Below are positions 1,034-64,000 of a stretch of 64,000 nt of DNA, in pieces. The notes below the pieces were generated by a model. That model did no database searches and was not told where the DNA came from. It saw only the letters and a list, made by a program, of their open reading frames with translations. Each line of letters starts with the position of its first letter. Position 1 is the stretch's first letter. A program made the position numbers and the translations under genes. The DNA is from Eledone cirrhosa (lineage: Eukaryota): positions 272,676,001-272,740,000 of the forward strand of contig OZ024743.1 of the NCBI GenBank assembly GCA_964016885.1. The letters run 5' to 3'.

Positions 1034-1979
1034 ATATATTTAGAAACACACAGATACATGCGGACACACACATATATACATGAATGCATCCACACCCAAC
1101 TGTGAGTTAAGGGTGCCAACTTCACCGATGTTGCTCAATGAATGACTGGGACAGACCAATTCAGTTGAACTAGACTGAACCAGTATCAGAGTTAAAAATA
1201 CATTATGAAGAGAGAAGAAACATTTAGATATAATTAGTAATAAAATGTATCATACCTAAACTGCTCCTAAATTCCTCGACTACGTAGTTTCGTGGCATAA
1301 ACAAAAACAATATATCAAAGATATAGAGTCGTTGCAAGGGCTGCCGACTTATCAAGAGGATACCTCATTTTACTAGTCTCAAGAACGCGTCTACACGACG
1401 TGAGAAAGAATCCCAAAAGGCGGAGGGGGAGATAGTCACGCGATATAACGGTCGAGAAACAGAGCTAAGCCTCTTATAACCACGAAGAAAATACCACGGA
1501 GGCGGAGGGGGTATTCATATCGAGGCCGTAGAAGAGGTAGTGAAGAAGGCGAGAAGTATGAGTAATGGAAGCTTTTAATTATATCTAAATGTTTCTTCTC
1601 TCTTCATAATGTATTTTTAACTCTGATACTGGTTCAGTCTAGTTCAACTGAATTGGTCTGTCCCAGTCATTCATTGAGCAACATCGGTGAAGTTGGCACC
1701 CTTAACTCACAGTTGGGTGTGGATGCATTCATGTATATATGTGTGTGTCCGCATGTATCTGTGTGTTTCTAAATATATTAATAACTCCCTCTGGTCGAGC
1801 AATCTTTGAAGTGTGGGGACAACTGGAAAGCTTCCATTACTCATACTTCTCGCCTTCTTCACTACCTCTTCTACGGCCTCGATATGAATACCCCCTCCGC
1901 CTCCGTGGTATTTTCTTCGTGGTTATAAGAGGCTTAGCTCTGTTTCTCGACCGTTATATCGCGTGACTATCTCCCCCTC
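1034..1979. repeat. Interleaved inverted duplications (A-B-A'-B') around an HHR-bearing pseudo-LTR
   Basis: 1034-1236 is the reverse complement of 1576-1778; 1423-1575 is the reverse complement of 1827-1979. Confidence 0.9.
1273..1360 (-). ncRNA. Type I hammerhead ribozyme, U3:A8 core variant
   Basis: Minus strand: tcctc TTGATAA gtcggca…tgccac GAAA ctacgtag TC gagga; stem I tcctc/gagga, palindromic stem III, GUC site. Confidence 0.8.
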
Positions 1980-2108
1980 AGCATTAGACTTACTATAGAC
2001 TACCCAAGTAGACACCCCAACCATCGATTACCTGTACTAGACACAGAGCTCTGGTTAGATACTATTAACAACCAAAAACAAATCCTCCATTCCCATTATG
2101 CGAAACCC

Positions 2109-2984
2109 ATGACTTCCAAACATCTGATCCACCGAAACTCGGCCATTTCGGACCATACCAAAATCAACATACTGATTGCGGATTTGGTACGGGTGATGAG
2201 AAATGTGTCCCGCATGTGCAACCCCGAAGAACTAGAGAGACACATACAACACTTCATCCACCGTATGCAGTTCTCTGGCTACAATCAGAGAGATAGAATC
2301 AGAGTGTATAAAGGAGCCAGAACCAAATGGGAAAAAATGGTAAATAATGACATAAATGGGACCTGCCCCTTGTATAGGAGCAAATTTTGGAATAGAATAG
2401 AAAGAACTAGGAACAAGGCCAATAGAATAAACTCATGGTATGATAGCAATAAATACCAGAGTGTAATGTTCATCAATACAACCCCTAGAGGCGAACTAGC
2501 CTACAAATTTAGAAGGGCCCTAAATAAACATAAACTCAATATTAAGATAGTAGAAAGACCAGGTACCTCCGTAAAAACACTTATTAGCAAGACATACCCG
2601 TTCCAAAGACCCTCATGTATAGATAAGAAATGTATAACCTGTAAAATAAGCCCCCATATTAACTGTAAAACTAGCATAAGATGTACTGAAGGACAATGTA
2701 GAAACAAAAATATAGTGTACATAGGTGAGACAGCTCGTAGTATAGGGGAACGAATAAATGAACACTGGCGAGACCTTCAAGATAATAAAGAATCATCTGT
2801 GCTCTACCAACATGCTAAGATAGAACACAGGAGTAGATTAGAGAACATAGAAATAAAAATAGAATCCACACACAGAAAAGATGCAATGTTTAGGCAAATT
2901 ACAGAGGCAGTAAGCATAAAAGAATTACAACCAAAATTAAATAGAAAATATGAGTGGAACAGCAACATCACAACTTACAATTAA
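2109..2984 (+). CDS. PLE polyprotein C-terminal part (RT thumb, Cys linker, GIY-YIG endonuclease); 5' truncated
   Basis: Motifs 'MQFSGY', 'CIDKKCITC', 'IVYIGETARSIGERINEH', 'RQITEAVSIKELQPKLNRKYEW'. Confidence 0.85.
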   Translation: MTSKHLIHRNSAISDHTKINILIADLVRVMRNVSRMCNPEELERHIQHFIHRMQFSGYNQRDRIRVYKGARTKWEKMVNNDINGTCPLYRSKFWNRIERTRNKANRINSWYDSNKYQSVMFINTTPRGELAYKFRRALNKHKLNIKIVERPGTSVKTLISKTYPFQRPSCIDKKCITCKISPHINCKTSIRCTEGQCRNKNIVYIGETARSIGERINEHWRDLQDNKESSVLYQHAKIEHRSRLENIEIKIESTHRKDAMFRQITEAVSIKELQPKLNRKYEWNSNITTYN

Positions 2985-3185
2985 GGACAAAATGAAAACA
3001 CACACAGGACAAAATGAAAACACACACACACATAGAACAAACAACTTACAATTAAGGACAAAATGAAAACACACACAGGACAAAATGAAAACACACACAC
3101 ACATAGAACAAACAACTTACAATTAAGGACAAAATGAAAACACACACAGGACAAAATGAAAACACACACACACATAGAACAAACA
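2972..3185 (+). repeat. About 72-bp tandem repeat, three copies, spanning the PLE stop codon
   Basis: 'aacttacaattaaggacaaaatgaaaacacacacaggacaaaatgaaaacac…atagaacaaac' repeated three times. Confidence 0.9.
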
Positions 3186-3356
3186 ACCAACCAACAATAA
3201 ATAAATAAATAAATAAACAAATAGGTAAATGAACGCAAACACACACAGACACCCGGATGTGGCGCATGCGCAAACCGAGCACACAACACACACACAGAAA
3301 CAAAATGGCGTAGGATAGAAGAAAGGAAAGGCACAGAAACAAAAAAAGGAATCCCC

Positions 3357-3401
3357 AGTCACTGAAGAGGTCACAGAGTGTGTGACGAAAGGACTATGAC
3401 T
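3357..3401 (+). ncRNA. Minimal type I hammerhead ribozyme
   Basis: agtca CTGAAGA g gtcac agagtgt gtgac GAAA ggac TA tgact; stem I agtca/tgact, stem II gtcac/gtgac. Confidence 0.8.
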
Positions 3402-4061
3402 ATATATAAACAACTATCTGGTTGTGGAACCAACCAACCAACCAGAAATGTATAAGTTTGTAGATTTGTAAATTTATAAATTTATAAATATATAATAAAT
3501 CGAAGTGAAAGCAACTGGTGCGTGAGTTTCTTATTGGCAACATGACCCTCCCAATGTATAACAATATATATATATGTTTCTATTCACAATGATATGACAA
3601 GAAAAATCAGAGAATTCAATACACCTATTCCTGTATTGTGTATGTTTCACTGTAAAGTTTTACTCATTCTTGAGAGAGTAGTCTCTGATTTGCAGGCTAC
3701 ATTCTGCTTCTGAAAGGCAATAATTAATTTATATACTGCACCACACCCAAAAATACGCTAGATGCTGATACAGCTCTATTAGTGTTTCGTAGCGTGCGTT
3801 TCTATATTTGGGCACACCATATACTGGTCAACATTCTTACTAGTTATTTGCTTCCAATACCATTAAAAAGCGAGAAGAGAAAATAAATGTAGTAATATGT
3901 CTGATCCATGTGTTTTTTTATTATTAAAATTGCATTGTCAAATGATACGTTGTTAAACTATATATACATATATTGTGTGTGTATATATATATATATATAT
4001 ATATATATATTTATATATATATAAACGTTTACATATATATATACATATATATACATATACG

Positions 4062-4555
4062 TGTTTTGCAACGGGTCACTTTGTGGCTCAATGAAAATTT
4101 AATAAATTAAATAATCAGAGCTATATATCATAAAACATGTCTATAGAATCACAAGATAAAATATATACCATTTCCTCTCCCAATTATCATAATTAACTAT
4201 ATAAAAAATCGAATAGACGAGGCTATAAGAATGAGGCTTTTATGAAGAAATCTCCAACAAATAACCGAAACTAGCCCTTCGCGTCGGCCGCAACGGAATA
4301 TTTATCGAATATTTCGACAGCGCAATCGCCCAGATAGAGTCAATTAAACAGAATTAGGTGTAAAATAACCTAGGAGAAAATAGAATACATTTAAATACCT
4401 CTACCATGGTTTCGTCCGCATTTTGAGATTTCCAATAATTATGTAATAATTATGTAACTCGAGCACCGGATTCATCAGGAGATTTGCTCAGATCTAGACA
4501 CTAAATTTTCCAAAGTGATCGCGCCAAGAATTCATTCAAAATGGCTAAGAATCGT
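4062..4555 (-). mobile_element. Non-coding HHR element family B (retrozyme-like or solo pseudo-LTR), copy 1
   Basis: Homologous to 24517-24948 and 25071-25530; flanked by TA runs; no ORF; contains an HHR. Confidence 0.75.
4397..4483 (-). ncRNA. Type I hammerhead ribozyme with long stem II (family B)
   Basis: atctc CTGATGA atccg…cggac GAAA ccatgg TA gaggt. Confidence 0.75.
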
Positions 4556-62510: not shown

Positions 62511-62558
62511 GGAAATTACATATGAAATTACATATGAAATTACATATGAAATTACATA
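62511..62558 (+). repeat. 12-bp minisatellite (gaaattacatat), four copies
   Basis: Direct reading. Confidence 0.9.
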
Positions 62559-62796
62559 CGTTGAAATCTTTTTGTTCAATGAAGACCGCCATGGCGTTAA
62601 ACCAGAACACAAAAATATACCTAAGAAATATGTAATAAATAAACTTCTTTGATAAGTAACAAAAATAATGGAAAATCAAAATTATATATCCTCACATTTC
62701 TTGACATCTTTACGTAATGGATCATCGCTGTATTGGAACAATAGTCTAATATCTACTAAGCCTGCAGTAAGGTATATATATTTCTCACACTAATTA

Positions 62797-62925
62797 TCGG
62801 CGGGATCTGAGTTCAAATCCCGCCGAGGTTGACTTTGCCTTTCATCCTTACGGGGTCGATAAAATAAAGTACCAGTAATGCACTGGGTATTTGCTGGCCT
62901 TGTGCCTAAAGGTAGAAACAACTAA
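62797..62925 (+). mobile_element. 5'-truncated SINE
   Basis: Runs from the B box to the 3' end. Confidence 0.85.
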
Positions 62926-63191
62926 TTATTTAAATTAATGACCTCATTATAACATTAGCATATAGAAAGCGTTCTTTGATGAACTCTATTATTCAGATTT
63001 CGAAATCAACAGGAGCGAATATATTATTTTATTTCGTTTTCCGTTGCAGGAAAAGAGACGTCTAATTAAGATCTATATTGTGAATTGCTGAAAACCCAAG
63101 GAAATTTAGAATGCTAGAAATAACAGCTAAGCGACAATATTCTGAATATAGAAAATAAAGCTTAATTTCGTTTCAACATTATTTTAACCGG

Positions 63192-63380
63192 TGGGGCGAT
63201 GGATTGGCAGTATCGGTAAAGGGTCGGACGCCATGCTTTGCAGCAAAGAGTTATGGCCCTTTGTGGTCTGAGATCAAATCCCGCCGGTTAACTTTGCCTT
63301 TCATTCTTACGGGTCGATAAAATAAAGTGCCAGTAATAGACTGGGATAATTTTGGCATTGTGCCAAAAGTGGAAACAATT
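63192..63380 (+). mobile_element. SINE with target-site duplication attattttaac
   Basis: Consensus match; duplication near 63178 and 63378. Confidence 0.85.
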
Positions 63381-63531
63381 ATTTTAACTCGCTATAAATC
63401 AAGGAAAACATTTTTGCAAATACCACTGAAAAATGCTTAGTATGAGTGATGAACGTTTACCACATGGACGATTCTAAGGAGTTATATATATATATATATA
63501 TATATATATATATATATATATATATATATAT

Positions 63532-64000
63532 AAAATTAGAATTGGAGCTCTGAAATAGCAATATATATATATGTATATATAATGTATTTTGCAATACACT
63601 TTATGCTTAATTAAAAGCATTTTGAAGACCGTATGCTATTGTTTTAGAGTAGTGACAAGCTCACTTACTTTAATCTCAGCAAACAAGGGGAGATAAGCCG
63701 ACAAGGCCTTGTTTCGCATTTATTGATGCTTATCAAGGCTAACTACTCCCTCCTGTCTACGGAGATCACTGATGTTATATTCTTATAGAATTCTAGTAAA
63801 TAATCAGGAACTGATTATACAGAGCGGTTGCCGGTCAGGCAGAAATTAAAAATTAGAAATTGCAAAATACATTATATATACATCCATATATATATATTGC
63901 TATTTCAGAGCTCCAATTCTAATTTTTAATTTCTGCCTGACCGGAAACCGCTCTGTATAATCACTTCCTGATTATTTACTAGAATTATATAAGAATATAA
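63532..64000. repeat. Interleaved inverted duplications around an HHR pseudo-LTR, running off the window end
   Basis: 63532-63570 versus 63888-63926; 63775-63857 versus 63918-64000. Confidence 0.85.
63696..63740 (-). ncRNA. Type I hammerhead ribozyme, U3:A8 core variant
   Basis: agcc TTGATAA gcat caataa atgc GAAA caaggccttg TC ggct. Confidence 0.85.

Follow-up and report, generated by a model that had tools for sequence, protein, structure and literature searches.

Family-wide U3:A8 cores in candidate type I hammerhead ribozymes of probable Penelope-like repeats in Eledone cirrhosa

In the active fold of the hammerhead ribozyme, C3 of the core pairs with G8 (PMC3884650). A stretch of 64,000 nucleotides of the Eledone cirrhosa genome (contig OZ024743.1, positions 272,676,001 to 272,740,000; hereafter the window) holds hammerhead-like motifs whose cores read UUGAUAA or UUGAAAA in place of CUGANGA, with U at position 3 and A at position 8. 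This raises the question of whether such motifs are decayed ribozymes or members of families in which both positions changed together. We find that U3:A8 is the consensus of four repeat families, here called A to D. The motifs are real and family-wide and, judged from sequence, probably functional, although both the variant and its setting have been published. It is quite likely that they are type I hammerheads in the repeats of Penelope-like retroelements, in which U3:A8 replaces C3:G8 throughout each family, likely keeps the core active and leaves transcripts self-cleaving as dimers. The sites, their elements and a doubtful fifth family, E, are as follows.

1270..1363, minus strand: family A type I hammerhead; core UUGAUAA at 1355-1349, helix III palindromic, helix II domain of 57 nt, cleavage predicted after GUC at 1278
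1034..1985: family A element; non-coding minus-strand unit of 591 bp (1575-1034) and an inverted partial copy (1576-1985)
19165..19306, minus strand: family D hammerhead-like motif, copy 1; core UUGAAAA at 19298-19292, 8-bp helix I, helix II domain of ~107 nt with a C.A mismatch at its start, cleavage predicted after GUA at 19173
19349..19490, plus strand: family D motif, inverted copy 2; core UUGAAAA at 19357-19363
31484..33481, plus strand: family E, 561-bp tandem repeat (3.5 units); UUGAUAA boxes at 31956, 32517 and 33079, with GAAA; helices I and III poor; doubtful fifth U3:A8 family
38555..38602, minus strand: family B hammerhead; core UUGAUAA at 38594-38588, helix II of 5 bp, cleavage predicted after GUA at 38563
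38504..39775, minus strand: truncated Penelope-like element with the B hammerhead; broken Hydra-type GIY-YIG endonuclease region at 39392-38998, 404 nt upstream of the core
40125..40172, plus strand: family B hammerhead, inverted and degenerate copy; core UUGAUAA at 40133-40139 intact, GCAA for GAAA, helix III palindrome broken
63692..63744, minus strand: family C hammerhead; core UUGAUAA at 63736-63730, helix II of 4 bp, helix III strand a 12-nt palindrome, cleavage predicted after GUC at 63700
63532..64000: family C element; non-coding minus-strand unit of 319 bp (63905-63532) and an inverted partial copy (63859-64000)

The six sites of families A to D all show the U3:A8 core, the type I hammerhead order and a short palindromic helix III. 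Core boxes YUGANRA, GAAA (GCAA in the 40133 copy) and UH occur in type I order in all four families, and helices I, II and III surround the core in A, B and C. The helix III strands of A to D are perfect palindromes that form no hairpin in isolation; self-pairing is predicted at -12.9, -9.8, -19.5 and -10.0 kcal/mol for A, B, C and D, respectively. A first-pass annotation of the window had listed four independent families with such cores out of about 15. Its six cores are all present in type I folds; its coordinates mark the low end of each motif and not the core. It described unrelated stems, and the similarity among monomers of A, B, C, D and E is limited to microsatellite. Its four U3:A8 families stand, but the total is lower, at about 12-13: eight canonical families (seven from scans and one, at 42548, by eye), the four U3:A8 families and the doubtful E, which the annotation had not listed.

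The window has a GC content of 35.5%, is rich in microsatellites and contains many fragments of Penelope-like elements; RVT_1 or GIY-YIG domains were found in four of the seven open reading frames (ORFs) scanned. A type I descriptor with positions 3 and 8 left free gave 15 matches in the C3G8 or U3A8 state, compared with 0.06 per shuffle in 50 block shuffles, and two matches with other 3/8 combinations, compared with 0.86 per shuffle. Families A, B (38594) and C satisfy this descriptor. Family D fails it because its helix II is not closed directly at the core; it was recovered in a looser scan only. A looser window descriptor was uninformative, with eight matches against seven per shuffle, which is chance level. 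Rfam gave no hammerheads among the 150 rows listed of 159 for the window, canonical cores being missed as well. The family B hammerhead had no Rfam match, and family C had a weak HH9 match (19.5 bits, E 0.011, below the gathering score of 52).

Core states across the genome

Core states were counted in the 3.0 Gb genome using patterns with exact flanks, and rows among the matches listed were tallied by eye. For family A, 6,031 of 6,056 matches were U3A8 and none was C3G8. The remainder consisted of 12 without U3 (six C3A8, four G3A8, two A3A8) and 13 without A8 (eight U3G8, four U3U8, one U3C8), with no overlap between the two lists. No canonical C3G8 sister of A was found; a search anchored on helix III gave five C3G8 matches, all of them junctions of truncated copies. 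The window subfamily of B was U3A8 in 13 of 13 matches, and the first 100 of 1,579 matches to the B superfamily comprised 95 U3A8, three C3A8, one A3A8, one G3A8 and no C3G8, with G (92), C (3), U (3) or A (2) at position N7. Among the first 100 of 904 family D matches, U3 was present in all, A8 in 99 and a U4A change in one, leaving 98 intact cores, while N7 was divided among A (55), C (42) and U (3). A free position 7 flanked by fixed neighbours is characteristic of hammerheads.

The window subfamily of C had 196 matches, with U3A8 in 97 of the first 100. A widened pattern for the C superfamily returned 2,271 U3A8 copies (2,248 and 23), 41 copies with U3 and another base at position 8 (G in 28, U in eight, C in five, all listed) and 367 copies without U3. 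The first 100 of these 367 contained 82 C3G8, ten C3A8 and eight others, which extrapolates to ~300 C3G8 and ~37 C3A8 copies if the remaining rows resemble them. Helix II reads GCAU/AUGC, GCAC/GUGC, GUAC/GUAC or AUAC/GUAU depending on the subfamily; position 7 and the helices differ between subfamilies, and positions 3-6, 8 and 9 are constant. Together the four families amount to ~10,700 copies, a figure made up of sums and extrapolations. The count bears out the annotation on this point: the consensus is U3:A8, not CUGANGA, in each of the four families, single mutants are rare rather than as common as double mutants, and decay is not the source of the variant.

A generic genome pattern for the four core states was rejected as a measure of ribozyme ratios. 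It gave 5,884 U3A8 matches (617 in the reversed control), 756 C3G8 (782), 3,516 C3A8 (175) and 260 U3G8 (280), and leaves out large canonical families. About 92 of the 100 listed rows behind the C3A8 excess belong to one stretch of ORF of long interspersed nuclear element (LINE) type that has no helix I, and the commonest U3G8 row sits among helicase-like transposon ORFs; we take these false families to be RTE and Helitron, respectively.

The 3:8 switch within the C lineage

The double switch of the C lineage, together with the covariation of helices I, II and III between its subfamilies, is the best evidence for selection on the 3:8 pair. When positions 3 and 8 were masked, a tree of C copies united all 19 C3 rows in one clade (support 100/99), with one change separating C3G8 from U3A8, in agreement with the earlier claim that both positions change together. 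This tree was built on 92 of 108 rows, the 16 dropped rows being without a homologous upstream part or end motif; it replaced a first tree confounded by sequence past the end of the element. Under midpoint rooting the C3G8 clade is nested among U3A8 subfamilies and U3:A8 is ancestral. The clade may therefore be a reversion from U3A8, a direction that a midpoint root without an outgroup does not settle.

Seven U3G8 rows from four loci (L172, L173, L175 and L176) on three contigs share a haplotype, form multimers at two of the loci and group at the base of one clade (99/88). Since this haplotype is found at four loci, a wobble template was copied several times, possibly from a single source copy. 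A further, tentative suggestion, which we hold to be somewhat doubtful, is that the 3:8 pair toggles repeatedly and in both directions within one genome via a U·G wobble that can still be mobilised. If that were true, the more than 10,000 U3:A8 copies, the nested C3:G8 revertant clade and the U3·G8 sub-lineage would provide a natural record, open to counting, of compensatory evolution at the active site of a ribozyme. The C superfamily offers matched natural U3:A8, U3·G8 and C3:G8 versions on a near-identical scaffold, and thus permits a direct test of selection on cleavage.

Carriers, origins and mechanism

Family B has the clearest link to a carrier. Its core lies 404-413 nt past a GIY-YIG endonuclease at five distinct places and 326 nt past it at a sixth; the endonuclease has a CxCx5C linker and CxxC and CxH motifs, and copies sit at (TA)n. 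B is best read as the terminal repeat of a Hydra-type Penelope-like element, a clade call based on motifs, the tree having contained no reference sequence. A tree of 53 endonuclease fragments places the B clade, with moderate support (85/99, 83/94 and 83/69, none starred), as sister to a lineage with a C3G8 hammerhead; in only one distinct row of that lineage is the link to the hammerhead firm. Another U3:A8 family, which the window lacks, has a 4-nt palindromic helix III and follows a Neptune-type endonuclease by 606-608 nt at two loci (L084:6160 and L076:5845, both minus strand); this carrier is far from that of B in the tree. Family E has relatives in both states, U3A8 and a 70-73% identical C3G8 relative (L118) with a covarying helix II.

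Families A and C are repeated in tandem at spacings of 591-595 bp and 319 bp, respectively, with one type I hammerhead per unit, and the A unit has no long ORF. They are tandem non-coding repeats that resemble retrozymes, and their elements include inverted partial copies as in Penelope insertions. Monomers of A and C had no endonuclease match, and A, C and D had no reproducible protein link in the loci sampled. Some D copies share 1.2 kb of upstream sequence, and one D locus has an endonuclease behind a TA tract, with no secure link. A protein search that returned a single Penelope family was not used. Four sequencing runs of unknown kind span the A unit, its core free of listed differences, and three of them contain a head-to-tail A joint, which tandem DNA would give as well. 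In one such run (X22, on L003:925-1520), a 621-letter contig of flat, low depth closes the 591-bp unit head to tail. Another set of contigs covered flanking and microsatellite parts only.

Approximately three separate changes of the 3:8 state are indicated in mutually unrelated elements, strongly in C and more weakly in B and E. The earlier claim of four independent families falls short as to four independent U3:A8 origins, which are not demonstrated, as no retroelement protein could be linked to A, C or D. The same missing tie to an endonuclease or reverse transcriptase would suit an alternative in which A to D inherited U3:A8 from one or a few ancient origins and their stems diverged later, so that the families are not independent events. 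The truncated-copy junctions found in place of a C3G8 sister of A, and the ancestral U3:A8 of the midpoint-rooted C tree, are in line with it. The Neptune-type carrier at two loci, distant from B's own, the C3G8 sister of B (at moderate support and with its one firmly linked row) and the two states of E all speak against it, and we regard a shared ancient origin as possible but, on the whole, doubtful.

A narrower alternative is that D, and E with it, are not functional hammerheads, leaving three families to be counted. Helix II of D opens with a C.A mismatch followed by a second mismatch, and by a third in the window copies, and E has no clear helix I. Against this, the 904 copies of D combine a free N7 with GAAA, GUA, a helix I of 8 bp and a helix III palindrome; changes in helix II between its subfamilies keep pairing (A-U to G.U and G.U to A-U, read by eye); and natural hammerheads include weak or mismatched helix II starts (PMC3088659). 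We consider this exclusion somewhat unlikely.

The literature leaves open whether Penelope-type hammerheads are mere passengers (PMC8557442). It is improbable that the motifs are true relics with dispensable cleavage in which U3:A8 spread via C>T and G>A bias in an AT-rich genome and a few amplified master copies: the low GC of the window, the GC-to-AT nature of both transitions, the mobilisation of U3G8 templates, the good proliferation of Penelope-like elements without canonical hammerheads (PMC8557442) and the 1,435 first-look genome candidates of E despite its poor helices I and III would fit, but the C switch places the change of both positions on a single branch and, with midpoint rooting, runs in the direction opposed to AT bias, position 7 and the helices vary between subfamilies around fixed positions 3-6, 8 and 9, and the top families in the generic C3A8 and U3G8 counts are no hammerheads.

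Under the preferred explanation, that of family-wide U3:A8 hammerheads cleaving as dimers, two ribozymes would pair via their helix III palindromes, with cleavage after GUC or GUA. Dimeric cleavage would free unit-length RNA, perhaps circularising, which the Penelope reverse transcriptase would copy back into TA-rich sites, in cis for B and in trans for A and C. Large subfamilies would be founded only by templates whose 3:8 position is paired, inserted copies would decay neutrally, and the pair would change in two transition steps, probably by way of a tolerated U·G wobble. Because position 3 pairs with position 8, whose 2'-OH is the proposed general acid (PMC6155905), an A-U pair can serve in both roles of the original; covarying ribozymes have already been reported as active in vitro (PMC3088659).

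Several points weigh against this explanation. Patterns with exact flanks bias the genome counts toward young copies, and the best-matching copies of A, at 92-98% identity, look young; the few single mutants of A would thus partly reflect age, and their low count alone is not proof of selection. Given the U3G8 sub-lineage, mobilisation does not strictly require a Watson-Crick 3:8 pair. Family D does not have the usual G10.1:C11.1 pair. Lastly, hammerheads of Penelope elements cleave poorly or slowly in vitro, even as dimers (PMC4209133).

Other window features and known systems

Canonical hammerheads serve as comparators within the window.

3352..3406, plus strand: canonical C3:G8 hammerhead, 380 nt after the end of a Penelope-like endonuclease ORF
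4478, 16860, 19888, 20369, 24870, 26504, 37015 and 40531, minus strand: other canonical cores
19999, 21095, 26672, 27185, 38217 and 42548, plus strand: other canonical cores

One canonical family has five copies (21095, 26504, 26672, 27185 and 40531), in which helix II begins with a U.U mismatch and helix III is a palindrome of 4 nt. The hammerhead at 42540-42610, read by eye and missed by the descriptors, has a 12-bp helix II. Three repeat copies (24545, 25201 and 25581) carry a CUGAUGA box with no GAAA within 150 nt downstream. Penelope-like fragments in inverted arrangement occupy 12290-16640, with a reverse transcriptase ORF at 14530-15738 and endonuclease parts on both strands; this element had 16,128 first-look genome candidates, the best ~90-94% identical, and no linked hammerhead was found. 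Dispersed repeats of ~100-200 bp resembling short interspersed nuclear elements occur at 5196-7515, 22581-23281, 39839-40047, 55454-56522, 59088-59279 and 62806-63286.

The U3-A8 variant was reported in several natural hammerheads in 2011 (Perreault, PMC3088659), and in Penelope-like elements of Schistosoma a U3-A8 descriptor gave ~1,300 matches compared with ~2,000 for the standard one (Cervera 2014, PMC4209133). The annotation's statement that canonical searches would miss all four families holds for a CUGANGA descriptor and is overstated otherwise, as a U3:A8 descriptor had been published by 2014 (PMC4209133). With ~10,700 copies invisible to CUGANGA, surveys must allow UUGANAA. The variant itself is therefore known; what is possibly new is the switch within one lineage and the mobilised U3·G8 sub-lineage. 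No account of a within-lineage 3:8 reversion or of a mobilised U3·G8 intermediate was found in the paper listings searched or the papers cited here; supplements may list more animals with U3:A8.

The closest known system is the set of Cercyon Penelope-like hammerheads of Schistosoma mansoni (PMC4209133), which share the core covariation, type I topology, terminal-repeat location, dimer design and opposite-strand pairs. The E. cirrhosa motifs differ in a helix III formed by a 6-10 nt palindrome, helix III being absent from the Cercyon motifs, in the long helix II domains of A and D, in the total of ~10,700 copies and in their linked carriers, which are of Hydra and Neptune type. The same covariation of C3-G8 to U3-A8 marks the hammerheads of Perreault 2011 (PMC3088659), which are scattered examples, whereas here whole repeat families carry it and a switch occurs inside one lineage. 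A (591 bp) and C (319 bp) resemble animal non-LTR (long terminal repeat) retrozymes (PMC7229834; bioRxiv 10.64898/2026.07.22.740005), each being a tandemly repeated non-coding unit that contains a single type I hammerhead. Unlike those retrozymes, the A unit exceeds the reported 170-400 nt, U3-A8 is not named in the passages of these sources that were searched, and the E. cirrhosa units are known from DNA sequence. Finally, B shares with the Hydra clade of Penelope-like elements (Craig 2021, PMC8557442) the endonuclease motifs CxCx5C, CxxC and CxH and a (TA)n location; the hammerheads reported for that clade are canonical, whereas that of B has U3:A8.

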